In this document: piece by piece, positions 1 to 18,937 of the stretch
Position numbering within the stretch: position 1 is the stretch's first letter
Layout: every line of letters starts with the position of its first letter
Assembly: GCA_050123235.1 (NCBI GenBank)
Contig: JASFHL010000001.1
Location: 20,651-84,650 of the forward strand
Source of the DNA: Candidatus Woesebacteria bacterium
GTDB taxonomy: Bacteria; Patescibacteriota; Microgenomatia; UBA1400; PJMF01
Reading direction: 5' to 3'
DNA: 64,000 nucleotides
Made by a program: the position numbers and the translations under genes
Notes under the pieces: generated by a model
Databases searched by the model: none
The model's input: the letters and a program-made list of their open reading frames with translations, nothing else
What the model was told of the DNA's origin: nothing

Positions 1-800
1 GTTTTAAGACTAATGATTTTCAGAATTTTTTAAATCAATTTTTTGGTCTAGCTAATACAGTTTTGATTTTATCTGGAAAAAAAAGCTTAGTTGAAAATAA
101 TAAGATCTTAGAAGAACTAGATAAATTTTTTAGCAAAACCCCTGATTTTAGAACTACTCAAGATAAAAATTTGGATATTGGTAAGTTTTTGTCAGAAAAT
201 CCGATTTCTGTAGATAAACTTCACTTGGAATATAGAAAGACTGAACAAGCTCATTTTGTGATGGGGTGGCCTGCTATTAAAAGAAAAAGTAAAAAAAGAT
301 ATGCTTTGACCTTATTATCAGTGATTTTAGGGGGGAATATGAGTTCTAGGTTATTTAGTGAATTAAGAGAAAAACGAGGTCTTTGTTATTACATAAATAG
401 TGATATTGACCAATTTCATGATGGGGGAGTTTTTGGAGCTTCGGCCGGGGTTGATGTAAGCAGGGTAGAAGAGGCAATTAAATTGGCAATAGCTGAATTT
501 GCGGCTATTGCTGATGGTAGTAAAGCTATTAGTGATAAAGAGTTGCGAAAAGCCAAGGATCATTTGCTGGGTAAAATGGTCTTGGGTTTTGAAGACAGCG
601 AGGCTGTGGCTCAATATTTTGGTATGAAACAGTTATTGATGGGTCAGATCGAAACACCAGACGAAGTGCTAAAGAAAGTTCAGGCAGTCAGTAAAGAAGA
701 GATAGAGGCTTTGGCAAAAGAGATTGTTAAGCCTGCTGAGCTGCGTTTAGCTTTGATTGGTCCTTTTAAAGATAGAGGGAGATTTGAAAATATTATATGA
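1..800 (+). CDS. M16-family (insulinase-like) zinc peptidase, C-terminal portion; gene continues upstream of window
   Basis: Reading frame is open back to position 3 (no stop). Translation contains GGNMSSRLFSELREKRGLCYYI, the characteristic motif of M16 peptidase C-terminal domains. Confidence 0.6.
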   Translation, partial: FKTNDFQNFLNQFFGLANTVLILSGKKSLVENNKILEELDKFFSKTPDFRTTQDKNLDIGKFLSENPISVDKLHLEYRKTEQAHFVMGWPAIKRKSKKRYALTLLSVILGGNMSSRLFSELREKRGLCYYINSDIDQFHDGGVFGASAGVDVSRVEEAIKLAIAEFAAIADGSKAISDKELRKAKDHLLGKMVLGFEDSEAVAQYFGMKQLLMGQIETPDEVLKKVQAVSKEEIEALAKEIVKPAELRLALIGPFKDRGRFENII

Positions 801-1071: not shown

Positions 1072-1542
1072 ATGAAAAATACTCGCACAGCAGTTTTAGT
1101 TAAACCAGATGGTCTACAAAGAGGCCTGATTGGTGAAATCATTAGCCGTTTTGAAAGAAAAGGTTTGAAGCTAATTGCTTTAAAAATGACTTACATGACT
1201 GACAAAATGCTTAGCGCATGGTATGCAGAACACAAAGATAAGAGTTTTTTTAAAGACCTTAAAATGTTTATGAGTTCTATGCCTATTGTGGCTATGATTT
1301 GGGAGGGAGTTGATGCAGTACCAGTGGTTAGAAAATTAGTAGGTACTACCTTGGGCAGGGAAGCAGAAGCAGGTTCTATTCGTGGTGATTTTGGAATGAG
1401 TCAACAATTCAACCTTATTCACGCTTCTTCTAGCAATTCTGATGCGGAAAGAGAGATTGGGATAGTTTTTGATAAGGATGAATTGTTTGAATACAATGGA
1501 GCGTTAGATTGTGTAATTTATGCTGACGATGAAATATCGTAG
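1072..1542 (+). CDS. ndk: Nucleoside diphosphate kinase
   Basis: 156 aa. N-terminal TAVLVKPDGLQRGLIGEIISRFERKGLKL and the NLIHASSS active-site His region are typical of NDK. RBS-like aaaggaaa lies upstream. Confidence 0.9.
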   Translation: MKNTRTAVLVKPDGLQRGLIGEIISRFERKGLKLIALKMTYMTDKMLSAWYAEHKDKSFFKDLKMFMSSMPIVAMIWEGVDAVPVVRKLVGTTLGREAEAGSIRGDFGMSQQFNLIHASSSNSDAEREIGIVFDKDELFEYNGALDCVIYADDEIS

Positions 1543-1552
1543 CAGTAGAAAG

Positions 1553-1624
1553 TGCCCTCACCAGGAATCGAACCTGGATCTATCGCTTAGGAGGCGATTA
1601 TTCTATCCGTTTAACTATGAGGGC
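1553..1624 (-). tRNA. tRNA-Arg (anticodon CCT)
   Basis: Reverse complement gives a 72-nt cloverleaf: acceptor GCCCTCA/TGAGGGC, T-loop GGTTCGATTCC, anticodon loop CTCCTAA. Confidence 0.85.
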
Positions 1625-1801: not shown

Positions 1802-2380
1802 ATGACAATTGAATTCAGAAAAGAGAACAAGAGTAAAGCTTCAAAGACAAGAAAAACAATTATTTTTTCTGTTTTCATAGCTTTATTTTTCCTCAGTATT
1901 GCTGGTTTTGCTTTTTCATATTGGCAATATAGTCAGGCTAAGAAACAACTTAGTTATTTATCATCAATTGACGGTCAAAGGGAAATGGCTCAAAAGGAGA
2001 TTGGGGCGCTATTGGAAAAGGTGAAAAAGCACATTGTTTTGCCAGATGATGAGCAACCAATTGTAGCTACTATTACTGATATTGAAACATTGGCTGCAGA
2101 GCAAGCTTTTTATCAAGGAGCTGAAAATGGAGACAAGGTTTTGATTTTTGTGAAGGCTAAAAAAGCATTGATTTACAGTCCTAGCCGAGATATTTTAGTT
2201 AATGTAGGTCCTGCTTACATGAATGCTCAACAATCAATGCCTGTTCCTGAGCAAGCAACTCAAACCGAAGAGGGAGAAATAGAAGAAAAAGAAGATTCGC
2301 AAGTTGAGCCGACTGTTAAAGCAGAGAAAGAGCCAACAGTTGCTGAGCAAGAGAAGCCTGCTAATTCAGAGGGTGAGTAG
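1802..2380 (+). CDS. Hypothetical membrane-anchored protein (N-terminal TM, acidic C-terminal tail)
   Basis: 192 aa. Hydrophobic segment IIFSVFIALFFLSIAGFAFSYW, then a soluble region and an E/K-rich tail. Sits upstream of the ATP synthase genes but I see no convincing b/delta similarity. Confidence 0.45.
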   Translation: MTIEFRKENKSKASKTRKTIIFSVFIALFFLSIAGFAFSYWQYSQAKKQLSYLSSIDGQREMAQKEIGALLEKVKKHIVLPDDEQPIVATITDIETLAAEQAFYQGAENGDKVLIFVKAKKALIYSPSRDILVNVGPAYMNAQQSMPVPEQATQTEEGEIEEKEDSQVEPTVKAEKEPTVAEQEKPANSEGE

Positions 2381-2512
2381 CTTGATAATTTGCGGTACTT
2401 AGATAAAAACCTCATCTGTGTACTTTGGAACAACGGAAGATCACAAGTTTGACAGCCTAAGTGTTTGAGTAATTATTAATAGAAGATAGAAATGAACTTA
2501 TGAGTTCAAAAC

Positions 2513-3409
2513 ATGCCCAAAGTTGTTCGTAGTTTAATACTTTTTTTTATTTTCTTCAGTTTTTCTCCTTTTTTATTAGGCACTAATAAGTTTTCGATTA
2601 TTGATAGTCAGTTTTATGAAGTGGTACAAGCTCAGGAGCTTGATTCTCCTCAAGGATTAGGCATTGCTAAACAGCTACCCGTCACTGGTGATAATCTACT
2701 AGAAGGCTCAATTGTGTCTTATCGTGATTCAAACTATCAGTTGAGTTCAGAAGCTTATGATAAAAGCATGTTTGGGGTTGTCAGTCAAAACCCTGCTATG
2801 GAGATTAGTTTTGAGCAAGCAACTGATGCGCAATTAACCCCAGTAATTTCTGAAGGAATTGTGCCAGTGAGAGTTTCCCTCATCAACGGGCCGATTAAGA
2901 AAGGTGATCAAATTACCTCCTCTGACATTGCTGGAGTGGGAATGAAAGCTGAAAAATCTGGTTTCATTTTAGGCATTGCTCAAGAGAATAGCCCTGAAAT
3001 TTTAAATTCAGGCGAATCAACTGCTGAACAGGATGTTGCTAAGCTTAATTCAGAACAAGTAGTGACAATTTTGGTGGCACTAGATGTTAAGTTTGCTTTT
3101 TCTCAAGGTACTCCAGCTTCAAAGACAATTATCAAACGCTTACTTGATGTGGTGAATTTAAGTGCAATTGCAGTTTTTGAGGAACCAAAAGAGATCTTCC
3201 GTCATGTAGTAGCAGCTTTAGTAGTTTTAGTTGCTTTGGGATTTAGTTTTTTTAGTTTCGCCAAGTTAGCTAGAGGAGGAGTAGATGCTTTTGCTAGAAA
3301 TCCATTGGCTCATAAAACTATTAGTTTTGGAATCATCGTTAATGTTTTGCTCAGCATCTTAATTTTATTAACAGGTCTAGCAGCAGCCTATTTTATAATT
3401 TCGCTTTAA
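2513..3409 (+). CDS. Hypothetical membrane protein with C-terminal two-helix hairpin (weak resemblance to ATPase c-subunit loop)
   Basis: 298 aa. N-terminal hydrophobic segment, ~200-aa soluble region, then a C-terminal helix-loop-helix: LVVLVALGFSFFSFAKLARGGVDAFARNPLAHKTISFGIIVNVLLSILILLTGLAAAYFI. The ARNP loop recalls the ARQP loop of F-type c subunits. Located immediately upstream of atpA. Confidence 0.45.
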   Translation: MPKVVRSLILFFIFFSFSPFLLGTNKFSIIDSQFYEVVQAQELDSPQGLGIAKQLPVTGDNLLEGSIVSYRDSNYQLSSEAYDKSMFGVVSQNPAMEISFEQATDAQLTPVISEGIVPVRVSLINGPIKKGDQITSSDIAGVGMKAEKSGFILGIAQENSPEILNSGESTAEQDVAKLNSEQVVTILVALDVKFAFSQGTPASKTIIKRLLDVVNLSAIAVFEEPKEIFRHVVAALVVLVALGFSFFSFAKLARGGVDAFARNPLAHKTISFGIIVNVLLSILILLTGLAAAYFIISL

Positions 3410-3440
3410 ATATAGCAATTTATGCAATAAGTACTGCAAT

Positions 3441-5120
3441 ATGTTAAAGAAATCAAAAAATAGATCAGTTGAAGAATACGGAATAGTGGAATCTATCAAT
3501 CATCCTTTATTGTTAGTTAAGGGTTTGCCTAATGCAAGGAGTGGTGATACTTTGATTTTTGAAAATGGTGCTATGGGACAAGTTCTAAACTTCAGCCATG
3601 CAGCTGAAGTGATGCTTTTTTCAGAAGAACTTGTTAAGGTGGGCAGCCGCTGTTTAAACACCGGTCAAACACTATCATTGCATGTCTCTACTGATCTTTT
3701 GGGAGCGGTAGTTGATCCCTTAGGTAAGTCTTTGGAAGAAAAAAAACCGGTTAAAAGTTTATCCAAAGATTGTTTTTTTAAATTAGCTAAATATGGAAAT
3801 TTGAATGACAGTGAATTCTTTGGTAAAAAACAGAGTTCCTTATTAAAGTTTGCTCGGAAAAGAGAGGCAGAAAAATCTAATAAGGCTTGTTATTTAGTTG
3901 ATAGCAAAGCTACTGCTTTAGAACAGAGGGCCCAATTAAAAGAACCTCTAGTGACAGCTAGTGCTATAGTAGATCTTTTGCTTCCCTTAGCTAAGGGTCA
4001 ACGCGAACTAGTAGTGGGAGATAGAAAAACTGGAAAGACTTCTTTTCTCTTAAATTTAGCTGAAAATCAAATCAGGGCTGGTGCAATAGTAATTTATGCT
4101 TTGATTGGCAAAAAAATGAGTGAAATCAAGGCAGTTAGACAGTATTTCATAGATAAGAAACTTAATCAAAAGATAGTGATTGTTGCTGCTGGAGCTAAGG
4201 CAGTGCCTAGTATTATTTATCTAACTCCTTTTAGTGCTATGACAATTGCTGAGTATTTTAGGGATCAGAGTAAGGATGTTTTATTGATTCTAGATGATTT
4301 ATCTACTCATGCTAAATTTTATAGAGAGATCTCTTTGCTAGCTAGGAAATTTCCAGGAAGAGATTCCTATCCTGGTGATATTTTCTATACTCATGCTCGT
4401 TTGTTGGAACGGGCTGGGAATTTCAAATCAACTGTACCAGCGAAAAAGGAAAATAGCGGAGTTGGGCAGGCTGAACCTAAGATTGCTAAAGCTAAGAATT
4501 CTGCTACTCAGGCTTCAGACACTAAAATCAATCCAACAGTCAGTATCTCTTGTTTACCAGTAGCCAACACAATAGAAAGTGATTTAACTGATTATATTGT
4601 ATCTAATTTGATTAGTATTACTGACGGTCATTTGTTATTTGATGCAGCAATGGTGAGAAGTGGTCAACATCCGGCCATAAATGTTGCCTTATCAGTAACT
4701 AGGGTCGGTAAACAAGTTCAAAGCCAAGTGGTGAGAGAGTTGAACACTAAATTGTTAGCCTTTATGAATAAATATAGAAAAAGTATGAGTTTTTCTCATT
4801 TTGGAGCTGAGTTAACTGCCGAAACTCAATTTTTGATTAACAAAGGTGAAGCTTTTGAAGCTTTTTTACTTCAAAAACCTGAGGAGATTATTCCTTTGCC
4901 AGTTCAAGTAGTAGTGGCAGCATTGCTTTGGTTTGATTATTTGCTTGATTTTGAAGCTGAACAGGTAAGGCAGTTACGTCAGCAGTTAACTAAGACTTAT
5001 CTCCAAAATCAAGAGATGAGAGACTTGTTTGATAATTTATTTAGACTGGAGAATTTAGATGAATTAAAAACAGAGTTAATGCCCCTCAAGGAGAAAATAA
5101 AAGAAATATTAAAAAACTAG
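3441..5120 (+). CDS. atpA: F-type ATP synthase alpha subunit (divergent, ~40-aa insertion)
   Basis: 559 aa. Walker A GDRKTGKT (alpha-type GDRQTGKT). Strong collinear similarity to F1-alpha around QRELVVGDRKTGKTSFLLNLAENQ ... LILDDLSTHAKFYREISLLARKFPGRDSYPGDIFYTHARLLERA. Confidence 0.85.
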   Translation: MLKKSKNRSVEEYGIVESINHPLLLVKGLPNARSGDTLIFENGAMGQVLNFSHAAEVMLFSEELVKVGSRCLNTGQTLSLHVSTDLLGAVVDPLGKSLEEKKPVKSLSKDCFFKLAKYGNLNDSEFFGKKQSSLLKFARKREAEKSNKACYLVDSKATALEQRAQLKEPLVTASAIVDLLLPLAKGQRELVVGDRKTGKTSFLLNLAENQIRAGAIVIYALIGKKMSEIKAVRQYFIDKKLNQKIVIVAAGAKAVPSIIYLTPFSAMTIAEYFRDQSKDVLLILDDLSTHAKFYREISLLARKFPGRDSYPGDIFYTHARLLERAGNFKSTVPAKKENSGVGQAEPKIAKAKNSATQASDTKINPTVSISCLPVANTIESDLTDYIVSNLISITDGHLLFDAAMVRSGQHPAINVALSVTRVGKQVQSQVVRELNTKLLAFMNKYRKSMSFSHFGAELTAETQFLINKGEAFEAFLLQKPEEIIPLPVQVVVAALLWFDYLLDFEAEQVRQLRQQLTKTYLQNQEMRDLFDNLFRLENLDELKTELMPLKEKIKEILKN

Positions 5121-5145
5121 TTAGTGAGGATATGCCTACAATGCC

Positions 5146-6054
5146 TTGAAATTTAGAAAATTGTTTATGACTTTAAAAAAAATTAAATCACAAGTAGTTT
5201 TTACTAAAGATTTTGCTAAGTTAACCAAAGCTTATCAGGAGATTGCAGTTATGAAGATACAAAAGGCTAGAAGACAGATTTTGAAAACTCGTGCTTATAT
5301 TGATGGTTTATTGGAAGTTTTTGTGGATGTTCGTGCTTCTCATCAGAAAGAAATGATTGCTGAGCTCAAAAAGAAAGGCAAAATAAAAGGAGATGAAGAG
5401 AATTGGCGTTTTACTGGTTTGGGAGAAAAGGAGCAAATAGTGGCTGTTTTATTTTCTCCTAGTAGTCACTTTACTGGTGATCTTAGCAGAAGAGTTTTTG
5501 CCAACTTTAAGAAATTTGTTAAAGAAAATGAAGCAGAGATTGTGGTGGTGGGTAAAATAGGTAGAGATTTAATGAAGGAGCATTTTGGCTCGGAGAAGTC
5601 ATATAAATATTTTGATTTGGACGAATCTTTATTGGATAAGCAAGACTTTCATCTTTTATTGGACTATTTAGTCAAATTTGCCATAGTTGAGGTATTTAAT
5701 GGTCGTTTTGTCAGTTTAGTACAGCAAGAATCAGTGCGTAGTAACCTCACAGCCAATGAATTATTGTTTGAGCAAGCAACAGAACTTGAGAAAAGAGATA
5801 GTTTTTTATTTGAACCTTCGGTAGATAGAATTTTAGATTTTTTTGAAAAACAAGTTTTTGCTGCACTTTTACGCCAGACATATCATGAATCTTATTTAGC
5901 TAATCTGGCTTCTCGTATCACAAATTTGGAATCAGCTATTGATTTGACTGAGAAGAAAGAACAATCATTAATTTTCAAACAAAACAGGGTTAGACAGCTA
6001 CTAGTTAATAAAAAGCAACGGCAGAGACTGGCTGGAGTTAGTCTTTGGACTTAA
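5146..6054 (+). CDS. atpG: F-type ATP synthase gamma subunit (divergent)
   Basis: 302 aa. Sits between alpha and beta as in canonical atpAGD order. N-terminal KIKSQVVFTKDFAKLTKAYQEIAVMKIQKARRQILKTRAY matches the gamma N-terminal helix pattern (IRSKI.SV.NT.KITKAMEMVA..K.R). The call rests on both position and this weak similarity. Confidence 0.6.
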   Translation: MKFRKLFMTLKKIKSQVVFTKDFAKLTKAYQEIAVMKIQKARRQILKTRAYIDGLLEVFVDVRASHQKEMIAELKKKGKIKGDEENWRFTGLGEKEQIVAVLFSPSSHFTGDLSRRVFANFKKFVKENEAEIVVVGKIGRDLMKEHFGSEKSYKYFDLDESLLDKQDFHLLLDYLVKFAIVEVFNGRFVSLVQQESVRSNLTANELLFEQATELEKRDSFLFEPSVDRILDFFEKQVFAALLRQTYHESYLANLASRITNLESAIDLTEKKEQSLIFKQNRVRQLLVNKKQRQRLAGVSLWT

Positions 6055-6057
6055 ATT

Positions 6058-7440
6058 ATGAAAAACTGTGGAATCATTATTTCTCTTAATGTGCAAGTAG
6101 CAGAAGTGGAATTTAGTAAAAACTATCCTAGTATCCATGAGTTATTGATTTTAAATGGTGATAAATCAGTGATTTTGGAAGTTTATGCTTCTGCTAGTAA
6201 AAATTCATTTTATTGTTTGGTTTTATCTGGTCATGAGAAATTGACCAAGGGAGCTAAAGTTACTTGCACTCATCAGGCTTTGAGTGTACCGGTAGGTAAG
6301 ATGGTTTTAGGCAGAATGTTTGATATTTTTGGTCGGTCTTTGGATGGAAAGGATTTAAATCCAAGAGTTAAACAATCAATTTATCAGCGTCCTACCCTGT
6401 CTCTTAATGAAGTTGTGCCAGCGGATCAGATTTTGGAGACTGGTGTGAAGGTGATTGATTTTTTTGCTCCTTTACTTAAAGGCGGTAAAATGGGCTTATT
6501 TGGTGGTGCTGGTTTGGGTAAAACTTTGATGTTAACAGAATTGATTAATAATATTGTTATTTTAAGAAAAAAGAAAGGAAGTACTCAAAAACGGAGTCAT
6601 GTTTCTGTTTTTAGTGCTGTGGGAGAGCGTTCCAGGGAAGCGCTTGAACTTCACGCTTCTCTACAAGAAGCTGGCGTGTTGCAAGATACCACGCTAGTAA
6701 TTGGCCAAATGGGTGAGAATCCAGTAGTCAGGTTTAGAACTGCTTTAGCAGGAGTAACCTTAGCTGAGTATTTTAGAGATGAACAAAGGCAAGATGTTTT
6801 GTTTTTTATGGATAATGTTTATCGTTTTGCTCAAGCTGGTTATGAATTGTCAACCTTAATGAATATGATCCCCTCAGAGGATGGTTACCAAGCTACTTTG
6901 CCATCAGAGATTGCTTCTTTGCATGAAAGATTGAGTTCAACTGATAAAGCTAGTATTACCATGGTCGAGGCAGTTTATTTACCGTCTGATGATATTAATG
7001 ACTATAGTGTGCGTTCTGTTTTTCCATATCTGGATAGCGTAGTAGTTCTCTCACGTGATGTTTATCAAACAGGCCGTTTGCCAGCAATCGATTTGTTAGC
7101 TTCTAATTCTGCTGCCATGAATCCTGAAATAGTAGGGGAAGAACATTATCAGACTTATATTAAAGCCAAACGTTTGTTGGAAAAAGCATCTGGGTTTGAA
7201 AGAATTGTTTCCCTGGTAGGTGTTTCTGAATTAAGCAAGGAAAATCAAACAATCTATAAAAGAGCAGAGTTGTTGAAAAATTATATGACTCAAAATTTTT
7301 TTGTAGCTGAAGCTCAAAGTGGTAGAAAAGGTAATTACGTTAAATTAAAGCAGACAATCAAAGATGTTTGTAGAATTTTAGCAGGTGACTTAGATGAGAG
7401 TCAGCCAGATAAACTAAGCTTTATTGCAGCAATAAAGTAG
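6058..7440 (+). CDS. atpD: F-type ATP synthase beta subunit
   Basis: 460 aa. Walker A GGAGLGKTLMLTELINNI. Walker B/catalytic region LFFMDNVYRFAQAGYELSTLMNMIPSEDGYQATL. DELSEED-equivalent region GVSELSKENQTIYKRAELLKNYMTQNFFVAE, nearly collinear with E. coli [31 protein letters not shown]. Confidence 0.9.
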   Translation: MKNCGIIISLNVQVAEVEFSKNYPSIHELLILNGDKSVILEVYASASKNSFYCLVLSGHEKLTKGAKVTCTHQALSVPVGKMVLGRMFDIFGRSLDGKDLNPRVKQSIYQRPTLSLNEVVPADQILETGVKVIDFFAPLLKGGKMGLFGGAGLGKTLMLTELINNIVILRKKKGSTQKRSHVSVFSAVGERSREALELHASLQEAGVLQDTTLVIGQMGENPVVRFRTALAGVTLAEYFRDEQRQDVLFFMDNVYRFAQAGYELSTLMNMIPSEDGYQATLPSEIASLHERLSSTDKASITMVEAVYLPSDDINDYSVRSVFPYLDSVVVLSRDVYQTGRLPAIDLLASNSAAMNPEIVGEEHYQTYIKAKRLLEKASGFERIVSLVGVSELSKENQTIYKRAELLKNYMTQNFFVAEAQSGRKGNYVKLKQTIKDVCRILAGDLDESQPDKLSFIAAIK

Positions 7441-7647: not shown

Positions 7648-10600
7648 ATGACAGAAGCTGATAATTTGATTAAAACTAGTTTCCTCAAGAAGATAGTTGC
7701 TTTCTGTTTTTTTTCTTTAATCAGCCTTTTAGTTTTTAGCTTAGCTCAAATTCTTTTAGATAAGAATCCAAGTTTTACTGGGTATGATGATAATTCTCAA
7801 GTTTTAAGATCAGCTGAAAATTTAAAACAGAGCAATAGAGCTAAAGTTTTAGCTGCTGCTGATGAAAGAACAGACAGGCAATCATTGATGACTTTTAATA
7901 TTGAGACAGTTTTTAAAAAATTACTAAAAGTTGCTGGATTGAAAGTAGAGGAAGAGGCTGAGTTCGCTGGTACTAGCACTTTTAATGCTGCTTCAGAATT
8001 TAATGATAGTGTTACTTTTAATGGAGATGTTAATTTAGCAGAAAATGTGACAGTCAGTGGTCCATTAACTTTACTTAATGATATCACTGGCAAAAATATT
8101 AGTTTAGACCTAGGCACTACTGGTAAACTAACTGCTAGCAATGTAATCTATTCACTTACAGCAGGGGATGGTATTAGCATCACTAGTGGACAAACGCCAA
8201 CCATTACTAATGACGACCCTGGTTCTGATCAATTGATTTTTTCTACTATTGAAGTTGATGGCTCTGGTGTCACAGCTGGCTCCAATACTGATACTCTCAA
8301 GTTTATTTCTGGATCTGGAATAAGTTTGAGTCGATCAGGTAAAGAGATCACTATTTCTGGTACAGGCATAGGCTGGACAACAAGCGGTGATTATGTGATT
8401 TTGTCTGATTCCACAGATACTGTAGGAATTGGTACTGCCACTCCCAATGCTAAATTGGAAATTAATAGCGGGAGCGATGATACTTCTGGTCTACGTTTTA
8501 CCCAGCTGACTGGCGGTTCTACTTCAATTTCCAACCCCAGTGGCGGCAAAGTACTAACTGTTGATGCAGGCGGAAATGTAATCTTGGTTGATGATCAAAC
8601 TGGAGGTAGCCAAACTGCGGAGGAGATTCTACCTAGTGCTAGCCAAGGTGGCACACTATATTACAACGGCAGTAATTGGGCTTCTAGCACTAATCTTTAT
8701 CATTATGGTGGTAATGTGGGTATTTATGAAACAGGTCCTCAAGGAAGATTACATGTGACCACCAATTACAATGTGATTGGCTTAGTAGTGGAAAGAGAAT
8801 CTGGTCAAACTTCTAATCTCACCGAATGGGTAGATGCAAACTTTACAGCTGGAGATACTCCGCTTTCATATATTGATACTAGTGGTAATTTTCATGGCGA
8901 TGTAGTGGGCGATGTTACAGGTTCAATTAATCCTAGTCTTACAACAGGGCAATTAGCTTTTCAAGGAGCGTCAGGTCTAAGTGGGGATGATGGCTTGTTT
9001 TGGGATAATACTGGCAAAAACCTAGGTATTGGTACTACTGATCCTGGTAGTAAACTCCAAGTTGCCGGTAATATCACTCCTACTGTGACGGATTATGATT
9101 TGGGGACTTCTAGCTTGAGGTGGGATCTCTATGCCAATACTATCAATGCTGACAACACTATTACTTTGACTGGTTTAGGTATAGGCACTGACAATACTGT
9201 CTTGATTCTTGATTCTAGTAATCAAGTCACTACTGATGAAATTGATTCCAGAGTCTGGGGTTCTAGTTTAATCGATGGCTCTGGCACTCAAAATTACCTA
9301 ACTAAATGGTCTGATTCTGATTCTCTAACTGATAGCTTAGTTTTTGATAATGGTAGCAGTGTTGGCATCGGGACTAGTGCGGTAGATCACCTACTAAATG
9401 TAGGCGGTAATATGGGGCTTTTTGCTGATGCTTATATCAATTGGGGTAGCACTGACGGTTCCGATGGTTATGGCTTAAGAGATAATAGTGGGGTTATAGA
9501 ATATAAAAACAGTACTGGTGACTGGGCTACTTTTGCTTCTTTGAGTAATGATTCTTATGCCTCTCACCATGATCGTGTGGTAGATCCTAGTGGAGGTGGT
9601 ACCGATACCACTATCGCTGATGCCATTAGTAATGCTTCTGCAGGCGATGTAATCTTTATTGTGCCTGGCACTTATAGTTTGTCTAGCAACTTAAGCATTG
9701 ATAAATCCTTAACTTTACTTGGTGCTGGTCGTGATGCCACCATTGTTAATGGAGTTGATGGTAGTGAAGCGACTATCAGCATTGTTGATGGAGTCAGTGA
9801 TGTGCAAATTAAAAATATGTCTATTACTAATGCTGGCAGTGGTTCTACTGATCATGTAATCCAAAAATTAGATAATACAGCAGGTGGCACTGGAGAAAAC
9901 TACTTATTTGAAAATCTAGAAATATCAGGTGGTTACCGTGGTATTTATATGGAAGATGGTGATCAAACTTCGATTATCAATTGTTATATTCATGATACTG
10001 GCAATATCGGTGTGCAAGTAGATAGCTCCAATGATCTACTAGTTTCTGATTCTGTATTTGAGTCAACTGGCAATAGTAGTGTCTACTTACAGAGTAGCTG
10101 GCGGGCGAAAATTACAGGTAACTATATCGAAGAAGCTGGCGATGATGGGATTTACCTCTATGGTGCTTATTATTCTACAGTCTCTAATAACACTCTTTTT
10201 GAAGTTGCTGATGTAGCAATTGCAGCCAGAGAAGCAGATTACAGTACTATTACAGCTAATGTCATTCAGGGAAATAAGTCTACTGATAAAACAAACATGG
10301 GTATTTATCTCAGGCAAGTTGATCATTTAGTAATTTCTAATAACAGCATGTATCGAATTAATGGTGATGGTATTGATACTTATGCTTCTGTGGCAATTAC
10401 TGATGTGGCAATCACTGGTAATGCCATTTATGATTCAGAGGGTTATGGTATGGATCTATCCTTAAGTGCAGCAGGTGGTAATTTTACTGTAACAGGCAAT
10501 AGCCTTAATGACAATGATTCTTATGGCATTCATTTGAATAATGAGTTTAAAAATTCCTTAGTTGCTAATAACATTTTTACCAGCAATGCTTCGGGGGATA

Positions 10601-11943
10601 TTCTAGATGATGGTGGTAGTGGCAATATTATTGGGCCAAATAAAGTACAGTCTGCCACCAACGTGATGACACTAGATAATTTTACAGTCACCACGGCTGG
10701 TCAGGCGGCTGCTGTTGATGGCATGGTCACTAAGGTAGTAGCTGGAGCCTGTTCAGATGCTCAATTTACTGCAGACACCAATGGTTTACTTTGCATAGAT
10801 TCCACTAATGGTCGCATTTATTTCCGCTATGGTGATGCCTGGCACTATACTGATGAAACAGCTGGTTTTCAGATTCCTGATCATGAAACATATAGCTATG
10901 ATTTCGAAAATAAAAGATTTGATGAGAGTTCGCCCATGGTTGAAGGAGATTTTCTTTTGCCTTTTGTAGAAAGATATATGGAAGATGGGGCAGTGCACGC
11001 ACTTCATACAAAGTTTAGTGATGTCAAAGAGATTATTTTATCAGATCTTTACGAGCAAGTAGCTGGTCACGAAATAGAGATTCAAAGTCTTGGTGAGATT
11101 GCTGATGATAAAGAAACCCTGGCAGCTTTACAACTAAGTTTAGAAAATTTTGAAACTAGGGTTTTGGGATTAGAAGATAGCTTGGCTGCAATTGAAACAG
11201 AGCTCGAAGAAGCCACAGTTGATCAAAAGATGGTGGAGCAGGCAATTCTGAGTGATTACCTGAGTAAGGCAGAACTATCAAGTTTTGCTAAATTGAGCTA
11301 TCAGCTCTGGACTTTTGTAGCTGAAGTGACTTTTAAGGCCAAAGCTAGTTTCCAAGGGACAGCTGAGTTTTTGGCAGAGACTATTTTTCATGCTGAAACT
11401 AAATTTAAAGATAAGGCTCAATTTGAAGCTGAGTTAGTGGTTGATGAGAGTACAGCTGGTTTAGTGATTTTGAAAAAGGGTGAAACAGAGGTAGCAGTTA
11501 ATTTTACTAGAGAATATACTAATCAGCCGATTATCACCTTGACGGCAAGGGGAGAAGCAGCCTTAAAAGATAATCTTAGTTATACAGTAATGAATGAAAG
11601 TAAAACTGGCTTTAACATTAAAATTAATCACGCCCAAGACCAAGACTTAGAATTTGCTTGGCATGCTTTGGCAGTGGAGAAGACTGAAGCTGATCTAGAA
11701 GCGGCGCTGAATAATGCTGGTGAAACTGACGCAGCTCAGCCAGAGAATAGTGTAGATACAGATGAGACCCCAGAAATAAGCCCAACAGAAGCAGCTAACT
11801 CAGCGGCTACGGAATCTGCGGTGGTGGATATGTCAGAGCCGACAGCAGCCGAAGAAGATGGAGAGAGCAACAGTGAAACTGGAAGCAACACCAGTGAAGG
11901 TGAAGATGCTAACCTGTTGATTCAAGGTCAAGATAAATTTTAG
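7648..11943 (+). CDS. Giant cell-surface protein with signal anchor, GIGT-type fibre-like repeats, right-handed parallel beta-helix (pectin-lyase-like) repeats and acidic C-terminal tail
   Basis: 1431 aa. N-terminal TM (IVAFCFFSLISLLVFSLAQIL). Repeated VGIGTATPNAKLEI / LGIGTTDPGSKLQV / VGIGTSAV motifs. PbH1-like repeats (ISGGYRGIYMEDGDQTSIINCYIHDTGNIGVQVDSSNDLLVSDSVFESTGNSSVYLQSS...). C-terminus is D/E/S/T-rich. Confidence 0.7.
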   Translation: MTEADNLIKTSFLKKIVAFCFFSLISLLVFSLAQILLDKNPSFTGYDDNSQVLRSAENLKQSNRAKVLAAADERTDRQSLMTFNIETVFKKLLKVAGLKVEEEAEFAGTSTFNAASEFNDSVTFNGDVNLAENVTVSGPLTLLNDITGKNISLDLGTTGKLTASNVIYSLTAGDGISITSGQTPTITNDDPGSDQLIFSTIEVDGSGVTAGSNTDTLKFISGSGISLSRSGKEITISGTGIGWTTSGDYVILSDSTDTVGIGTATPNAKLEINSGSDDTSGLRFTQLTGGSTSISNPSGGKVLTVDAGGNVILVDDQTGGSQTAEEILPSASQGGTLYYNGSNWASSTNLYHYGGNVGIYETGPQGRLHVTTNYNVIGLVVERESGQTSNLTEWVDANFTAGDTPLSYIDTSGNFHGDVVGDVTGSINPSLTTGQLAFQGASGLSGDDGLFWDNTGKNLGIGTTDPGSKLQVAGNITPTVTDYDLGTSSLRWDLYANTINADNTITLTGLGIGTDNTVLILDSSNQVTTDEIDSRVWGSSLIDGSGTQNYLTKWSDSDSLTDSLVFDNGSSVGIGTSAVDHLLNVGGNMGLFADAYINWGSTDGSDGYGLRDNSGVIEYKNSTGDWATFASLSNDSYASHHDRVVDPSGGGTDTTIADAISNASAGDVIFIVPGTYSLSSNLSIDKSLTLLGAGRDATIVNGVDGSEATISIVDGVSDVQIKNMSITNAGSGSTDHVIQKLDNTAGGTGENYLFENLEISGGYRGIYMEDGDQTSIINCYIHDTGNIGVQVDSSNDLLVSDSVFESTGNSSVYLQSSWRAKITGNYIEEAGDDGIYLYGAYYSTVSNNTLFEVADVAIAAREADYSTITANVIQGNKSTDKTNMGIYLRQVDHLVISNNSMYRINGDGIDTYASVAITDVAITGNAIYDSEGYGMDLSLSAAGGNFTVTGNSLNDNDSYGIHLNNEFKNSLVANNIFTSNASGDILDDGGSGNIIGPNKVQSATNVMTLDNFTVTTAGQAAAVDGMVTKVVAGACSDAQFTADTNGLLCIDSTNGRIYFRYGDAWHYTDETAGFQIPDHETYSYDFENKRFDESSPMVEGDFLLPFVERYMEDGAVHALHTKFSDVKEIILSDLYEQVAGHEIEIQSLGEIADDKETLAALQLSLENFETRVLGLEDSLAAIETELEEATVDQKMVEQAILSDYLSKAELSSFAKLSYQLWTFVAEVTFKAKASFQGTAEFLAETIFHAETKFKDKAQFEAELVVDESTAGLVILKKGETEVAVNFTREYTNQPIITLTARGEAALKDNLSYTVMNESKTGFNIKINHAQDQDLEFAWHALAVEKTEADLEAALNNAGETDAAQPENSVDTDETPEISPTEAANSAATESAVVDMSEPTAAEEDGESNSETGSNTSEGEDANLLIQGQDKF

Positions 11944-12166
11944 CCTGATTTGCAATTAATCTTATCACCCCTAAATCAAGTTTAATTTCTTTAAATTTTT
12001 TTTTATTTTTGTGTAGAATTAATTTATTTTTGATAATGGAGATAAAATTGCTGTGTTGAGGTAAAACATCAAAGACACCTTCTTCATTTTCCGATGAAAT
12101 AGCATCAACTTCCTCTTCGAGGATCAGTCCTTTAAGACTGAAGATTTTTATCTTTATTTTGTCCAT
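11909..12166 (-). CDS. atpC: ATP synthase epsilon-like protein (N-terminal beta-sandwich domain only)
   Basis: 85 aa. IFSLKGLILEEEVDAISSENEEGVFDVLPQHSNFISII ... LDLGVIRLIANQAKIYLD aligns with the epsilon pattern [35 protein letters not shown] ... GGFLEV.PDKVTILA. Lacks the C-terminal helical hairpin. Overlaps the last 35 nt of the giant gene on the opposite strand. tRNA-Pro lies immediately upstream on the same strand. Confidence 0.5.
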   Translation of the reverse strand: MDKIKIKIFSLKGLILEEEVDAISSENEEGVFDVLPQHSNFISIIKNKLILHKNKKKFKEIKLDLGVIRLIANQAKIYLDLESTG

Positions 12167-12247
12167 TTTTTTATTAAATTTATTATGGCAAATTTTTTAA
12201 GTTAAGACTAGGGTGGAGCTTAGCTTTTCAAAGTAGAAAGTTTAGTG

Positions 12248-12321
12248 TCGGAGATGGCGGACTTGAACCGCCGACCTCACGCTCCCGATGCGTGCGCTCT
12301 AGCCATCTGAGCTAATCTCCG
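12248..12321 (-). tRNA. tRNA-Pro (anticodon CGG)
   Basis: Reverse complement gives a 74-nt cloverleaf: acceptor CGGAGAT/ATCTCCG, D-arm TAGCTCAGATGGCTAGAGC, anticodon loop ATCGGGA, T-arm GGCGGTTCAAGTCCGCC. Confidence 0.85.
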
Positions 12322-12324
12322 GAG

Positions 12325-13746
12325 TTATTTCAATTCAATGGCGTATAAATTTTTAGGAGTGTCAGGGCTAAAGGAAGTGAGAATAATAATTTTGCTACCG
12401 TCAGGCCAAGGATAAATAAAGTCATCGGCAAATGGGCCAGAATAAAGACTTTTTTTATTGGTTGCATCGTATTCCATAATGAAAATTTTTTGATCTTTGA
12501 TAAAAACAAGATGCTTTGAATCTGGGAACCATTGCAGGGTATTGATCAATAATGAACTGTGATAATTATTAAAATTCCTCACTGTTTGGGCTGAATCACT
12601 CGCTTGCAATCTAGTAAAAGCACTAGGAGATGACTCTAGTTTTATAGGAGTTTTGTTATAGATATCTGTTGCCAAAAGTTGCTTAAGATTGCTCAGTTGA
12701 GCACTTGTAGTAGCCTCTCCTTCAGTGACTGAGACTTCAGGAGTTGCTTCGCTTGCTTCATCCGATTTGTCAGTAATGATTTCTGCAGCAATTTTAAAAT
12801 TTTTATCTTCTTCTCGGTCGTAGATATAGATAGAGCCAATCTCTAATTCCCTAGACTCAGCTTGCGTATTGCTGGCAACTAAAGGGGGGATAAGATTCTC
12901 AGCTAAATTTAGGTCTGCAGTGGCAGTGTACAAAAGCCGTTTTTTATCCGGTGAAATGTATACATTTTTGGCTGACTCGGTGGCAATTTTTAAAATTTCT
13001 TCAGGAAATTCACTTAAAAACTGTCTTTCTCTAAGATACATTTCTTCTTCCCAAGTAGAAAGAATTTGTTTTCTTTTGAAGCTAATATCAGCTAGTTCTA
13101 CTAGATTATTTTTTTTATTAACATCAATTAGCATTTCTTTTTTGTCGGTGATGATAATGATTTCACTACTATCAGGTGACCAAATAAAAAAAGCATCTTC
13201 TAAGTTAATGTTAAGATTATCTTCAGCCAGGAATTTGGGTTCTTTTTGTAAAGGTAAAAAATTATTGTTTAGTTCCAAAAGATAAAGACCATTTTTATTT
13301 TCAGCACTGGCAGAAGCAGTGTAATAAAGAATTTTTTGTCCATCTGGAGAAGGGGAGATATTTTCAACACCAGTGAAAGTGAGAGGAGTCAAGCTTGGGG
13401 CAGCTGGAAAGAGTTGAGCATTAGTTTGGGTGACCAATTCCTTTTCTACTTGTAGTTGTTTTTTCCATTCAAGATAACCTTCTTTGACAATTTTGACTAA
13501 GTAGCTACCAGGTTCTAGATAAAGGGTTTCATCAGTGGCAGTCACCAGTCTGCCATCAATAAAGACTTGCGCTCCAGGAGGGAAAGAGTTAGCACTGAGC
13601 AACCCTAATTCACTTACTACTCCTTGTCTACTGAATCTCCAGTTACCTTTGGCATATTGAATAGCAGTCACAGCTCCAGCTGCGATGACTAAAAAAGAAA
13701 AGAGTGTATAAACTAAGCGAGCATTGATTTTTTTCAGAAATTTCAT
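12325..13746 (-). CDS. Membrane-anchored TolB/PD40-like beta-propeller protein with N-terminal PEGA-like domain
   Basis: 473 aa. N-terminal TM. PEGA-like GSYLVKIVKEGYLEWKKQLQV. Repeated SPDG/SPDS/SPDK...I.I/LLY motifs typical of PD40 repeats. Confidence 0.5.
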   Translation of the reverse strand: MKFLKKINARLVYTLFSFLVIAAGAVTAIQYAKGNWRFSRQGVVSELGLLSANSFPPGAQVFIDGRLVTATDETLYLEPGSYLVKIVKEGYLEWKKQLQVEKELVTQTNAQLFPAAPSLTPLTFTGVENISPSPDGQKILYYTASASAENKNGLYLLELNNNFLPLQKEPKFLAEDNLNINLEDAFFIWSPDSSEIIIITDKKEMLIDVNKKNNLVELADISFKRKQILSTWEEEMYLRERQFLSEFPEEILKIATESAKNVYISPDKKRLLYTATADLNLAENLIPPLVASNTQAESRELEIGSIYIYDREEDKNFKIAAEIITDKSDEASEATPEVSVTEGEATTSAQLSNLKQLLATDIYNKTPIKLESSPSAFTRLQASDSAQTVRNFNNYHSSLLINTLQWFPDSKHLVFIKDQKIFIMEYDATNKKSLYSGPFADDFIYPWPDGSKIIILTSFSPDTPKNLYAIELK

Positions 13747-17365: not shown

Positions 17366-18937
17366 TTATTTAAGTTTTGCACTGGCAAGCATTTCAGCCT
17401 CCAGCAGCTCTTGTTTAAGAATTTTTGCTAAGTCAGCCGGCAAGTAATGCTTATTATTCCAAGATTTTAAGACTTTTGATGTTCTTTTTTCTAAGTTTTT
17501 TTCTTGCGCTAAGATTTTGTTTTTAACTGCTTTTAAGACAATGGGCAATGGTTCTGATGATTGTTCATATTTTTTAACACTCAGATAAAAGGCAATCAAG
17601 GTTTCTTCATGAGTACCTACACATTCAAATGGTTTTTGAGTGCCAAAGCCAATCAATTCCCAAGCTATGTCTAAGAGTTCTGCTTTTTCAAATAAATTTT
17701 CTGAGAAAATATCGTTACATAGTTCTTTTTTATCAACAAAAGGGAAGAGAATAGTAAAGACAAACAAACACTTGGGGCAATGATGACACCAGTGATTACT
17801 GCGTTGCCCAACATTGCAACTGCGGAAGCTAGGATGATATTGAGGGTAAGCGGCAAAAAGTTTGGCGATTTGCAATTCATAAACTGGGCGAAGAAAAGAA
17901 AAATAGAGTGGGTGAGAGGGCAAATTTCGATTTCTTATTAAGTTTATTTCTTTGCTGCCACCTTGCCCGGAACCAAGCAAGTCATTTTGAAACAAGTAAC
18001 GCTTAGCATAATCTCTAAATTTTGTTTCAAAGTCAAAGGTTTTCGAGTACTGGTGATTAATTTGCTGGCCATGGAAAATTAAATTTTCTTCATTAGCTGA
18101 GCGTTCGTTAGCCAGGACAACGTATTGGTAAGCAGAAATATATGCCAAAACGCTACTCAAGAAGGCCAAATAGGCGCTATAAGGAGTATGACCATTCAGA
18201 TAACCTTGTCGGTTAAGATCAAGCAGTTTTTGATCTATACGGCGGTTAATTTTAATAGTTTCTTGGCAATGGCTTTTTTGAATAGCAGTTCCTGAAGCAG
18301 GACTTTGTGGATGTAACAATAAACAGCCATATTTTAATTTGTGTTTGTCAAAAATACCCAGAGTTAGAGAAGAGTCTTTACCACCAGCGGCAGGAATCAA
18401 ATATTTTTTTCTTGCTTTAAAGCCAGTTGCCTTAATTTGTTTTTGAGTTTTTTGAACTTCTGAAATCTTGTTGCTGGCGGAACCTGTGACTGTTTGACTG
18501 GATTGAGCTGTGATCTCAGTTTTTTTTCTGTTTTTACTTGCCTCAGCCTTAATTTTAATAAAATCCTGAGCAGTAAAATCAATCTGATTCTGATAAAAGA
18601 ATTCTCCAAGGCCTTTGATAATCAGATCCTTCCACCAGGCTATTTGATCTGGATTTAGCTGGCCAGCTTGGATGATAATCTGAGGTGAGCAACTAGCTTT
18701 CCAATAACTAGGGATTTCTGCTAAACCTAAGTGAAAGATTAGCTTATCCAGTATTTTGGGATCAATCGCTGCTAGATCATCCTCATTTATGCCTTCAATT
18801 GTGAGAGTAGGTTTAAATTTAATGCTTGGTTTTAGCAAAAAATCAAATTCTATTTGCAATTGATTTTTGACAAATTTATAAGAAAAATTTTGGTAGATTA
18901 ATTGAGGGTGTTTTTTTCTAAGTGTTTGAATGTTCAT
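17366..18937 (-). CDS. PP-loop ATPase superfamily protein (PAPS-reductase/TtcA/QueC-like) with C-terminal Cys cluster and ~180-aa N-terminal extension
   Basis: 523 aa. PP-loop-like IPAAGGKDSSLTLG (SGGxDS-type). C-terminal SCNVGQRSNHWCHHCPKC four-Cys cluster. Confidence 0.4.
   Translation of the reverse strand: MNIQTLRKKHPQLIYQNFSYKFVKNQLQIEFDFLLKPSIKFKPTLTIEGINEDDLAAIDPKILDKLIFHLGLAEIPSYWKASCSPQIIIQAGQLNPDQIAWWKDLIIKGLGEFFYQNQIDFTAQDFIKIKAEASKNRKKTEITAQSSQTVTGSASNKISEVQKTQKQIKATGFKARKKYLIPAAGGKDSSLTLGIFDKHKLKYGCLLLHPQSPASGTAIQKSHCQETIKINRRIDQKLLDLNRQGYLNGHTPYSAYLAFLSSVLAYISAYQYVVLANERSANEENLIFHGQQINHQYSKTFDFETKFRDYAKRYLFQNDLLGSGQGGSKEINLIRNRNLPSHPLYFSFLRPVYELQIAKLFAAYPQYHPSFRSCNVGQRSNHWCHHCPKCLFVFTILFPFVDKKELCNDIFSENLFEKAELLDIAWELIGFGTQKPFECVGTHEETLIAFYLSVKKYEQSSEPLPIVLKAVKNKILAQEKNLEKRTSKVLKSWNNKHYLPADLAKILKQELLEAEMLASAKLK

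Follow-up and report, generated by a model that had tools for sequence, protein, structure and literature searches.

A divergent F1-like ATPase in Candidatus Woesebacteria and related ultra-small bacteria, with a c-subunit-like membrane protein apparently in place of the Fo sector

We have analysed a 64-kb stretch of the genome of a Candidatus Woesebacteria bacterium (hereafter, the window, to which all window-level negative results refer). It is chromosomal DNA with a GC content of about 35%, and it encodes MreB, a Mur ligase, ThrRS, ArgRS and six tRNAs. Near its beginning, the genes for the alpha, gamma and beta subunits of an F-type ATPase are preceded by a gene for a 298-amino acid (aa) membrane protein, which we have termed X1. 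The coordinates of these genes, their functional motifs and their neighbours are collected in Table 1. An initial annotation, made from the sequence alone, had described the three subunits as clear F-type proteins preceded by two unrecognised genes (192 and 298 aa), with only tRNA-Arg and ndk further upstream, and had asked whether the Fo genes lie elsewhere or this F1 works with a divergent membrane partner. The tRNA-Arg and ndk genes are located there as described; that inventory had, however, missed the epsilon gene and the gene for a 1431-aa surface protein that stands before it. The evidence gathered here is best explained if, across a large family of divergent F-type ATPases in bacteria of the Candidate Phyla Radiation (CPR), the Fo sector is replaced by the single membrane protein X1.

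Table 1. Features of the window around the F1-like ATPase genes (nt positions; motifs and domains also in aa)
Feature	Position	Strand	Basis or remark
M16 peptidase	63-800	+	
ndk	1072-1542	+	
tRNA-Arg	1552-1624	-	
192-aa N-terminally anchored protein	1802-2380	+	no Pfam/NCBIfam match; probably outside the system
Best sigma-70-like promoter match, TTGACA-16-AATTAT	2449-2476	+	37 nt 5′ of X1
X1 (298 aa)	2513-3409	+	AF2, Foldseek, family, synteny
X1 beta domain	2657-3097		aa 49-195
X1 C-terminal hairpin	3185-3403		aa 225-297
X1 RNP loop	3296-3304		aa 262-264
X1 Asn277	3341-3343		
Alpha (559 aa)	3441-5120	+	Pfam ATP-synt_ab
Alpha Walker A, GDRKTGKT	4017-4040		aa 193-200
Alpha Arg-finger motif, SVTRVG	4692-4709		
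Gamma	5146/5167-6054	+	Pfam ATP-synt
Beta (460 aa)	6058-7440	+	Pfam ATP-synt_ab
Beta Walker A, GGAGLGKT	6502-6525		aa 149-156
Beta catalytic Glu, GERSRE	6622-6639		aa 189-194
Beta Walker B	6802-6828		
Beta DELSEED equivalent, SELSKEN	7225-7245		aa 390-396
1431-aa beta-helix surface protein	7648-11943	+	Pfam Beta_helix, NosD
H-type-lectin-like domain of the 1431-aa protein	11434-11733		aa 1263-1362
Epsilon (85 aa), N-domain only	11909-12166	-	Pfam ATP-synt_DE_N
tRNA-Pro	12247-12321	-	
PEGA-domain protein	12325-13746	-	

At the level of Pfam domains, the nature of the F1 subunits is clear, as the initial annotation had it: alpha matches ATP-synt_ab (E = 1.9e-58) and ATP-synt_ab_C, gamma matches ATP-synt (E = 2.6e-25; its probable start according to the gene callers is at 5167, giving a protein of 295 aa), beta matches ATP-synt_ab (E = 1.2e-61), and epsilon matches ATP-synt_DE_N (E = 1.1e-8). 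Epsilon is reduced to the beta-sandwich N-domain, without the C-terminal inhibitory helices, and the median length in its family is about 90 aa. To judge from the motifs, the alpha3beta3 core retains every catalytic residue; Walker A, GERxRE and Walker B are kept across 62 beta orthologues. Both Walker A motifs and SELSKEN had been recognised from the outset, but the YELS sequence (beta aa 262-265) that had been taken for the context of the catalytic Glu is not that context: GERSRE carries this residue. In the family, DELSEED is softened to SELSxED, i.e., it has fewer acidic residues. The epsilon gene and the gene for the 1431-aa protein are convergent and overlap by 35 nucleotides (nt; 11909-11943), and epsilon lies opposite to the alpha-gamma-beta strand in the whole sub-clade to which the window belongs (together with the loci L005-L010, L015, L017, L022 and L039 of the comparison described below).

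Although alpha, beta, gamma and epsilon pass the domain-level thresholds of Pfam, they score below the equivalog cut-offs of NCBIfam for the canonical F0F1 enzyme: alpha reaches 366 where 554 is required (NF009884) and 321 where 484 is required (TIGR00962), beta 429 against 463 (TIGR01039, atpD), gamma 62 against 194, and epsilon 36 against 67. The N-ATPase (alt_F1F0) cut-offs are likewise missed by alpha (289 against 750), beta (406 against 752) and epsilon (21 against 100), and so are those of the models for the Type 2 gliding ATPase (MMOB1660/1670: 328 against 600 and 344 against 850) and the Type 3 ATPase (MSC_0618/0619: 245 against 520 and 402 against 570) of Mycoplasma. The best score with the model for ATPases of type III secretion systems (T3SS) and flagella is 185, with a cut-off of 379.5 (TIGR01026), and alpha and beta are separate genes. 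We have rejected membership of the N-ATPases, the V/A-type ATPases and the T3SS ATPases on these curated scores. With all subunits under the curated cut-offs of every F-type family tested, this F1 stands out in sequence as a distinct, divergent class. The closest solved structures are those of Bacillus/Caldalkalibacillus F1 (alpha, about 249 bits; beta, 354 bits with Bacillus PS3), and the window's beta scores 291 bits with the beta subunit of the G1-ATPase in the PDB, compared to the 354 bits with the canonical one. Alpha has two insertions, at about aa 131-171 (some 40 aa; basic and amphipathic) and about aa 336-370 (some 35 aa; rich in Lys, Ala and Ser), neither of which occurs in any of the 15 other alpha orthologues aligned, including those of stalk-less loci. 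These insertions were considered as a general replacement for the peripheral stalk and rejected as such, since they are organism-specific and not found in other stalk-less loci.

X1 is identical to the hypothetical protein PVJ09_00105 of a Candidatus Woesebacteria metagenome-assembled genome (MAG) and occurs on metagenomic contigs of 145-188 kb. Neither X1 of the window nor the 192-aa protein has a Pfam or NCBIfam match, in agreement with the initial statement that both are unrecognisable as a, c, b or delta subunits in direct searches. A first search for X1 returned 50 homologues, and a profile search over 1.84 billion cluster representatives (50% identity) gave 23,869 matches at E ≤ 1e-3, 9,934 at E ≤ 1e-10 and 1,409 at E ≤ 1e-30, the best 150 of which are nearly all full-length (about 230-325 aa). 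In the AlphaFold2 (AF2) monomer model of X1 (predicted local distance difference test, 83; above 90 in the beta domain and the hairpin), a signal-peptide-like, presumably cleavable N-terminal helix (aa 3-23) is followed by a beta domain of about 150 aa, predicted to be extracellular, by a connecting helix (aa 201-223) and by a C-terminal transmembrane (TM) hairpin whose two helices (aa 225-262 and 264-297) are separated by a break at Asn263, within an Arg-Asn-Pro (RNP) loop. The model thus agrees with the two-helix hairpin that had been described from the sequence, with ARNP at aa 261-264 and IIVNVLL at aa 274-280, and adds the beta domain in front of it. In a Foldseek search of the PDB, the beta domain resembles the cement or decoration proteins of phage capsids (best E = 5e-5), with matches to those of Borrelia phage BB1, Pam3 (gp6), XM1 (gp53) and TW1; Pfam scores it against the same cement families, slightly under threshold. 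The ectodomain is better conserved than the hairpin.

The relation of X1 to c subunits of F-type ATPases becomes visible only through profile-profile comparison, family-wide NCBIfam scans and fold search: direct scans of X1 and of its 70-aa hairpin against Pfam ATP-synt_C, the comparison by which the initial annotation would have had the resemblance checked, gave nothing, even at E ≤ 10. With hhalign, a profile of 26 X1 hairpins aligns to a profile of six canonical c subunits with a probability of 69-71% (E = 4e-5) over 66 gapless columns, placing GRNP on ARQP, while reversed profiles yield 0.2% and 20 column shuffles at most 3.2%. Profile similarity to c subunits, the lack of which, combined with a canonical atpBEFH cluster elsewhere in the genome, would have made the locus a plain split operon, is therefore present. 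Among 47 members of the X1 family, 23 match the NCBIfam model "F0F1 ATP synthase subunit C" below its cut-off (best E = 1.9e-5) and others match four further c-subunit models, always within the hairpin. Furthermore, the hairpin-only Foldseek matches listed (ranks 27-50, with a few cement-domain matches interleaved) are all F-type c subunits, from Chloroflexus, Artemia, M. smegmatis, PS3 and spinach, with TM-scores of 0.72-0.88, root mean square deviations of 1.3-1.7 A and 13-21% identity. These comparisons of profiles and models indicate that the X1 hairpin is remotely homologous to F-type c subunits, and we regard it as very likely that X1 is the c-derived partner of this F1.

Within the hairpin, the RNP loop is invariant in 260 out of 260 unique X1 members and is preceded by Gly in 252 of them. 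It aligns with the R(Q/N)P loop by which c subunits contact gamma and epsilon, and it is predicted to be cytoplasmic; with the ectodomain outside the cell, the loop must face the cytoplasm, as in the topology of c subunits. Counted from the Arg of the loop (R), position R+15 is Asn in 222 and His in 13 of the 260 sequences, R+19 is Thr or Ser in 199, and R+26 is Gly in 247, whereas minor clades have Gln or Glu at R+14. The first TM helix has a face of small residues, A(-28), S(-21) and G(-17), in place of GxGxGxG. The initial annotation had seen an Asn where the ion-binding carboxylate would be. When the gapless profile alignment is anchored on the loop, the carboxylate falls at R+20, a column that is hydrophobic (I/V/L) in the family and Ile282 in X1; the Asn in question, Asn277 at R+15, stands five residues before this column, at a similar depth in the membrane.

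The association of X1 with F1 genes is not peculiar to the window. Approximately 198 stretches were detected in species-representative genomes, with Levy-, Roizman-, Woese-, Davies-, Gottesman- and Shapirobacteria, WWE3 and Saccharibacteria as hosts. We have compared 85 loci (numbered with the prefix L), 80 of them from species-representative genomes; the others are the window itself, an identical Logan contig and three loci that represent two distant homologues. Searches with hidden Markov models (HMMs) found X1 in 85 loci, alpha/beta in 77, gamma in 73, epsilon in 64, a delta-like protein (X3) in 61-70 and a c subunit in none; the shortfalls of components are largely due to loci on short or truncated contigs. 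X1 stands directly 5′ of the F1 genes in 77 of the 85 loci, a recurrence that puts the arrangement far beyond chance. The commonest order is a giant surface protein (usually divergently transcribed), X1, a protein that we call X2, X3, alpha, gamma, beta and epsilon. The same seven genes from X1 to epsilon occur in a distant clade (L002, L003 and L086; GC content, 46-54%), and X1-X2-X3-alpha-gamma-beta-epsilon is also the order in the WWE3 loci L065 and L078. At L026 (689-2675), an operon consists of X1, gamma and epsilon, i.e., of rotor parts only, without alpha and beta, flanked by housekeeping genes (a tRNA-synthetase fragment, an NTP transferase and TGT). Together with the c-like hairpin, the position of X1 upstream of F1 genes in distant CPR lineages and the L026 operon speak for the second of the two initial suggestions, an F1 with a divergent membrane partner.

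The other suggestion, a simple split operon with canonical atpB/E/F/H elsewhere and a 298-aa protein that is an unrelated neighbour, could appeal to the fact that the window covers only 64 kb out of the roughly 1 Mb that is typical of genomes of these bacteria and that its X1 has no direct Pfam or NCBIfam match. It does not account for the linkage of X1 to F1 genes in 77 loci over several candidate phylum-level lineages, nor for the one locus that links it to gamma and epsilon alone; the hairpin is c-like by three independent methods, and the F1 subunits are themselves atypical, all under equivalog cut-offs. Moreover, the complete WWE3 genome has been described with a single operon, of the X1 type, although the absence of others was not explicitly stated (PMC3812714). 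We consider a split operon very improbable. Genome reduction is usual in these bacteria, and one might also see in the locus a decaying, functionless relic that an ATP synthase has left in the reduced genome of a symbiont, a, b and delta having been lost in the window's lineage and alpha or beta open reading frames (ORFs) being frameshifted or split at L025, L041 and L066. Such decay is hardly credible given catalytic motifs intact in 62 orthologues, an X1 family thousands strong with invariant residues, a gene order kept over deep divergence, and duplicate clusters in some genomes.

Two complete X1-X2-X3-alpha-gamma-beta-epsilon clusters occur on different contigs of the assemblies CAYVAJ01 (L013 and L053) and CAYQEE01 (L027 and L072); one would not expect a housekeeping ATP synthase to be duplicated in so small a genome (about 1 Mb), and a binning error is possible. 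Alpha or beta is split in two ORFs at L031 and L035 as well as at the three loci named above, which may reflect frameshifts or pseudogenes, or errors of assembly. At L082, on a Gottesmanbacteria chromosome, a gene for a GIY-YIG endonuclease (10784-11125; Pfam E = 2.7e-13) stands between X1 and alpha. Among L005-L084, many TPA binchicken/SRP co-assembly MAGs are labelled uncultured Gammaproteobacteria or Pseudomonadales; they carry the CPR-type cluster with low-GC, CPR-like flanks, and the labels look wrong.

Neither a canonical a subunit nor a canonical c subunit was found near these clusters. Neither the Arg motif of a subunits nor the ARQP/GxGxGxG motif of c subunits is present in the six-frame translation of the window, and c-subunit HMMs have no match there either. 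The sole protein of the window with four or more TM helices (61686-63110; 474 aa, about 10 TM helices) is not an ATP-synt_A protein and has no Pfam match; it is one of three sizeable ORFs there without a Pfam match at E ≤ 0.001, the others being those at 17366-18937 (523 aa) and 43382-44641 (419 aa). None of the 85 loci has an a-like or c-like ORF, and no multi-TM gene is conserved among them. As to a second F1 or Fo in the flanks, the only extra alpha/beta-like matches (L075 and L078) reach about 36 bits and belong to other kinds of P-loop proteins.

The two genes between X1 and alpha in most relatives resemble the components of a peripheral stalk. X2 (about 220-250 aa) has one N-terminal TM helix, without a conserved polar residue, followed by a long helix; it is b-like by its position, topology and coiled coil. 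The profile comparison with E. coli b gave no clear signal (hhalign probability, 45%, as against 17% for the reversed control). It also has weak, sub-threshold FliH-like matches (E = 0.006-0.5). X3 matches Pfam OSCP with 23.9-29.6 bits, where the threshold is 22.3. The initial annotation had noted the lack of recognisable stalk genes upstream of alpha, where they are normally expected: in the window, they are indeed absent, but most relatives have them as b-like X2 and delta-like X3. With HMMs of X2 and X3 (58-66 sequences), no match at E ≤ 10 was obtained in the window, nor in L007, L015, L066, L071, L082 and L084, and these stalk-less loci are spread over at least two clades of the beta tree, implying that the stalk was lost repeatedly. 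By the profile searches, the window represents a reduced, stalk-less form of the system, X2 and X3 having been lost in its lineage.

An operon of this kind has been noticed before. Kantor et al. (2013, mBio, PMC3812714) described an unusual ATP synthase operon in WWE3 RAAC2 and in the OP11/WWE3 genomes ACD38 and ACD24; it is the single ATP synthase operon, of X1 type, described in the complete RAAC2 genome, and their "putative c subunit" is the TM protein common to the OP11 and WWE3 ATPase operons. They took it for an ion-pumping ATPase whose a, b and c subunits are divergent, leaving its function, direction and ion open (PMC3812714). In our comparison, the three genes resolve as the c-like ectodomain protein X1, the b-like X2 and the delta-like X3, which leaves no gene for an a subunit and no carboxylate; the window, without X2 and X3, is reduced further than the WWE3 operon. 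We found no description or follow-up in the literature on F1-like ATPases, c-rings or atpB/atpE of Patescibacteria, CPR and Saccharibacteria, in which only Kantor et al. (2013) mention the operon.

The enzyme could nevertheless be a real ion-translocating ATP synthase or ATPase with an extremely divergent Fo, X1 being its c subunit and the equivalent of a lying elsewhere or being unrecognisable, with ions held by a cluster of Asn, Thr and Ser or, in some clades, by Glu. A c-like hairpin, the delta-like and b-like proteins with which most lineages keep a rotor-stator architecture, the polar cluster in mid-membrane (S at R-21, N at R+15, T/S at R+19) and the Glu at R+14 of a minor clade would all fit an ion pump. 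The complete WWE3 genome was described with the X1-type operon as its ATP synthase (Kantor et al. 2013, PMC3812714), and a 2026 review still holds complex V of this phylum to be coupled to the proton motive force (PMF) (PMC13293708). Against this, the carboxylate gives way to Asn, His or Gln in more than 90% of the X1 members, and no a-like multi-TM gene is conserved in the 85 loci or present in the window. We know of no rotary ATPase that works without a ring carboxylate. The 150-aa ectodomain, better conserved than the hairpin, has no role in ion pumping; the regulatory domain of epsilon is lost, the stalk was lost repeatedly, and some genomes of about 1 Mb have two full copies. We therefore hold that the complex is probably neither an ion pump nor an ATP synthase, and that a divergent ion-translocating enzyme is unlikely.

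The neighbourhood of the cluster suggests where its output may be directed. The 1431-aa protein of the window has an N-terminal anchor, a right-handed beta helix of the NosD/pectate-lyase type (Pfam Beta_helix, 6e-33, and NosD) and a C-terminal H-type-lectin-like domain. This C-terminal domain recurs among the giant neighbours at 19 loci, and it aligns with the C-terminus of Y1, a conserved neighbour in the distant clade, with an hhalign probability of 98.2% (E = 4e-14). Within its family, seven of 17 members match Pfam H_lectin and five of 17 match K1-lyase_C, with Gp53-like_C also found; the profile of the domain had only chance-level matches in the PDB. From its domain composition, the 1431-aa protein has a tailspike-like architecture, and it is probably a client or partner of the machine. 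In 46 of 83 loci, an ORF of at least 700 aa is found no more than two genes away from the cluster, and in 35 of 75 such an ORF is its immediate upstream neighbour, against a background of 3.5% of the other ORFs in the same loci that reach this length. Furthermore, copies of the X1 beta domain, up to three per protein, are present in giant proteins (e.g., P0157, 4272 aa, and P0194, 1543 aa), and at five loci (L013, L018, L019, L047 and L053) giants with this domain adjoin the cluster and end in the H-lectin-like domain.

A different use of such an ATPase would be the export, assembly or recycling of giant surface proteins by a membrane-tethered enzyme that is non-rotary or steps only transiently, comparable to FliI/FliH/FliJ, with X1 as a mere anchor or adaptor. 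The tight linkage of giant secreted proteins to the cluster, the weak FliH-like matches of X2 (E = 0.006-0.5) and the dispensability of the stalk in several lineages would suit it, and a role in translocation was once proposed for the Type 2 ATPase of Mycoplasma (PMC3369863). However, genes for an alpha/beta heterohexamer together with true homologues of gamma, epsilon and delta are F-type and not T3SS-type, the FliI family scores far under its cut-off, and the conserved genes of the cluster do not include one for an export gate or a pore. A contact of the rotor type is suggested by the RNP loop, which is invariant, and by the operon of X1, gamma and epsilon; the signal or anchor sequences at the N-termini of the giant proteins are ordinary ones. 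A tethered export ATPase of this sort is improbable.

The 192-aa protein upstream of X1, the second unrecognised membrane protein of the initial annotation, is N-terminally anchored as described, but it does not behave as a membrane partner of F1. It consists of a small conserved domain, predicted to be extracytoplasmic, and an acidic tail; it has only 10 homologues, four of them with LytR_C, and homologues occur near the cluster at only four other loci, in variable positions. We have rejected it as a substitute for b or delta because of the predicted location of its domain outside the cell, its LytR_C relatives and its sporadic occurrence. On these sequence features, it is probably an unrelated envelope protein and not part of the system. 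The 473-aa PEGA-domain protein, just past epsilon and tRNA-Pro, is another envelope protein in the neighbourhood, with an N-terminal anchor, a PEGA domain (E = 1.9e-11) and a weak match to PD40. The best promoter match of the region (Table 1) is a weak candidate for the start of an X1-alpha-gamma-beta transcription unit; in the promoter and terminator scan of the region, the site counts do not exceed the shuffled expectation.

We tentatively propose that the complex is an F1-like ATPase that hydrolyses ATP without translocating ions and exerts its action on the cell surface. The X1 hairpins would oligomerise into an assembly resembling a c-ring, whose cytoplasmic RNP loops bind the foot of gamma and epsilon, as in F1Fo. 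Alpha3beta3 would work as an ATP hydrolase; epsilon is without its inhibitory C-terminal domain, and the DELSEED region has fewer acidic residues. With no a subunit and no membrane carboxylate at the loci, and presumably none in the genome as a whole, hydrolysis would be uncoupled from ion translocation. Torque, or stepwise conformational work, might then pass through the hairpin and the connecting helix to an extracellular crown formed by the ectodomains, and from there to the tailspike-like beta-helix proteins encoded beside the cluster. In most relatives, X2 and X3 would form the peripheral stalk; their absence from the window means that there, something else must hold alpha3beta3 in place, or else the machine does not rotate continuously. 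That the output is mechanical work on surface proteins is a possibility that we advance with caution, and an X1 c-ring turned by ATP hydrolysis, in other words a rotating extracellular crown coupled to tailspike-like fibres, we find rather doubtful.

Several observations weigh against the proposed mechanism. What a purely rotary model explains least well is that the stalk was lost repeatedly, and for this reason we do not press the mechanism further: the loss occurred at least twice, which is hard to square with torque exerted against a membrane-anchored stator. The structural support for X1 is a monomer model, from which the ring and the contact with gamma and epsilon are extrapolated. The hhalign probability that links the hairpin to c subunits is just about 70%, and the matches to c-subunit models are far under cut-off (14-17 bits among the members listed, against 122). 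The Glu at R+14 in a minor clade could bind ions, and the absence of an a subunit applies to the window and the loci, such that an a subunit or atpBEFH may lie elsewhere in the genome. The link to giant proteins rests on synteny, and such proteins are common in CPR genomes. Finally, at L085 (2223-4851), a homologue of X1 lies right next to the genes for the surface proteins Y1/Y2, and all six ATPase genes are missing, while at its sister locus L086 the ATPase genes stand between X1 and Y1/Y2. The L085 neighbourhood also has a gene for a WxLIP_PGBD (WxL-interacting, peptidoglycan-binding) protein.

Among known systems, the F1-like X0 ATPases of Mycoplasma appear to be the closest functional analogue of the proposed surface ATPase. 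They comprise Type 2, the gliding G1-ATPase of M. mobile (MMOB1610-1670), and Type 3 (MSC_0618-0624/MMCAP2_0575-0581), the latter required for the surface system MIB-MIP (PMC12994834), and they were described as being without equivalent in other bacteria (PMC3369863). Directly 5′ of the alpha-like gene, both types have a gene whose product combines a signal peptide and an ectodomain with two TM helices at the C-terminus (PMC12994834, PMC3369863), and X1 matches this published description in architecture and position. Shared features are divergent homologues of alpha, beta, gamma and epsilon, in which the Walker motifs are intact, and the absence of genes for a, b or c (PMC3369863, PMC12994834), as well as, in the window, the lack of a delta/b stalk, the genetic linkage of large surface proteins, and a proposed role as ATPase rather than synthase. 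In contrast, the window lacks the 12-TM protein and the small cytoplasmic "protein 2", and thereby the seven-gene cluster of the Mycoplasma systems; the CPR cluster has the canonical alpha-gamma-beta-epsilon order, most CPR relatives keep delta-like and b-like genes, and X1 is c-like and measures about 30 kDa, compared to 85-127 kDa for the Mycoplasma protein. Mycoplasmas, moreover, retain a genuine Type 1 F1Fo besides the X0 ATPases. We place the CPR system outside the Mycoplasma families because it fails the curated scores, has no 12-TM protein and usually keeps delta- and b-like genes.

With canonical F1Fo (atpIBEFHAGDC), the CPR cluster shares the order alpha-gamma-beta-epsilon, Pfam-level alpha, beta, gamma, epsilon and, in relatives, delta, and a c-like hairpin with an R(Q/N)P loop in the same membrane topology. 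It differs in having no a subunit (in the window and the loci), an epsilon without C-terminal domain and, in the window, no stalk, while its c homologue lacks the carboxylate and GxGxGxG and has a 200-aa extracellular extension. The N-ATPases (atpDCQRBEFAG) are likewise a second, divergent F-type lineage, and the window's beta scores 406 bits on the alt_F1F0 model; the order X1-alpha-gamma-beta is, however, a different one, and the N-ATPase a, b and c, with Na+-binding carboxylates, and AtpQ/AtpR are absent here.

Metabolic reconstructions of CPR bacteria routinely count an F-type ATPase as present. From its presence, reviews infer PMF-coupled ATP synthesis or ion pumping (e.g., PMC13293708). 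If the enzyme has neither an a subunit nor an ion-binding site, those inferences would be wrong for Microgenomates, WWE3 and part of the Saccharibacteria. The X1 family would be the non-Mycoplasma equivalent of the F1-like X0 systems, with a much wider distribution (1,409 or more cluster representatives at 50% identity), and a missing link: as it still keeps the c-like hairpin, delta and a b-like stalk, the coupling of F1 to a non-Fo membrane sector and to surface proteins becomes directly testable. Should a rotating crown exist after all, the F-type ATPase of these reconstructions would not be a bioenergetic enzyme, an ATP-powered rotary surface organelle for attachment, drilling or motility would be common among ultra-small CPR bacteria, "protein 5" with its two TM helices in the F1-like X0 ATPases of Mycoplasma would also be c-derived, and the CPR and Mycoplasma systems would form one class of F1 motors with an outward-facing rotor. 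The X1-linked F1 suggests itself as a candidate for the machine behind host attachment or attack by episymbiotic ultra-small bacteria.

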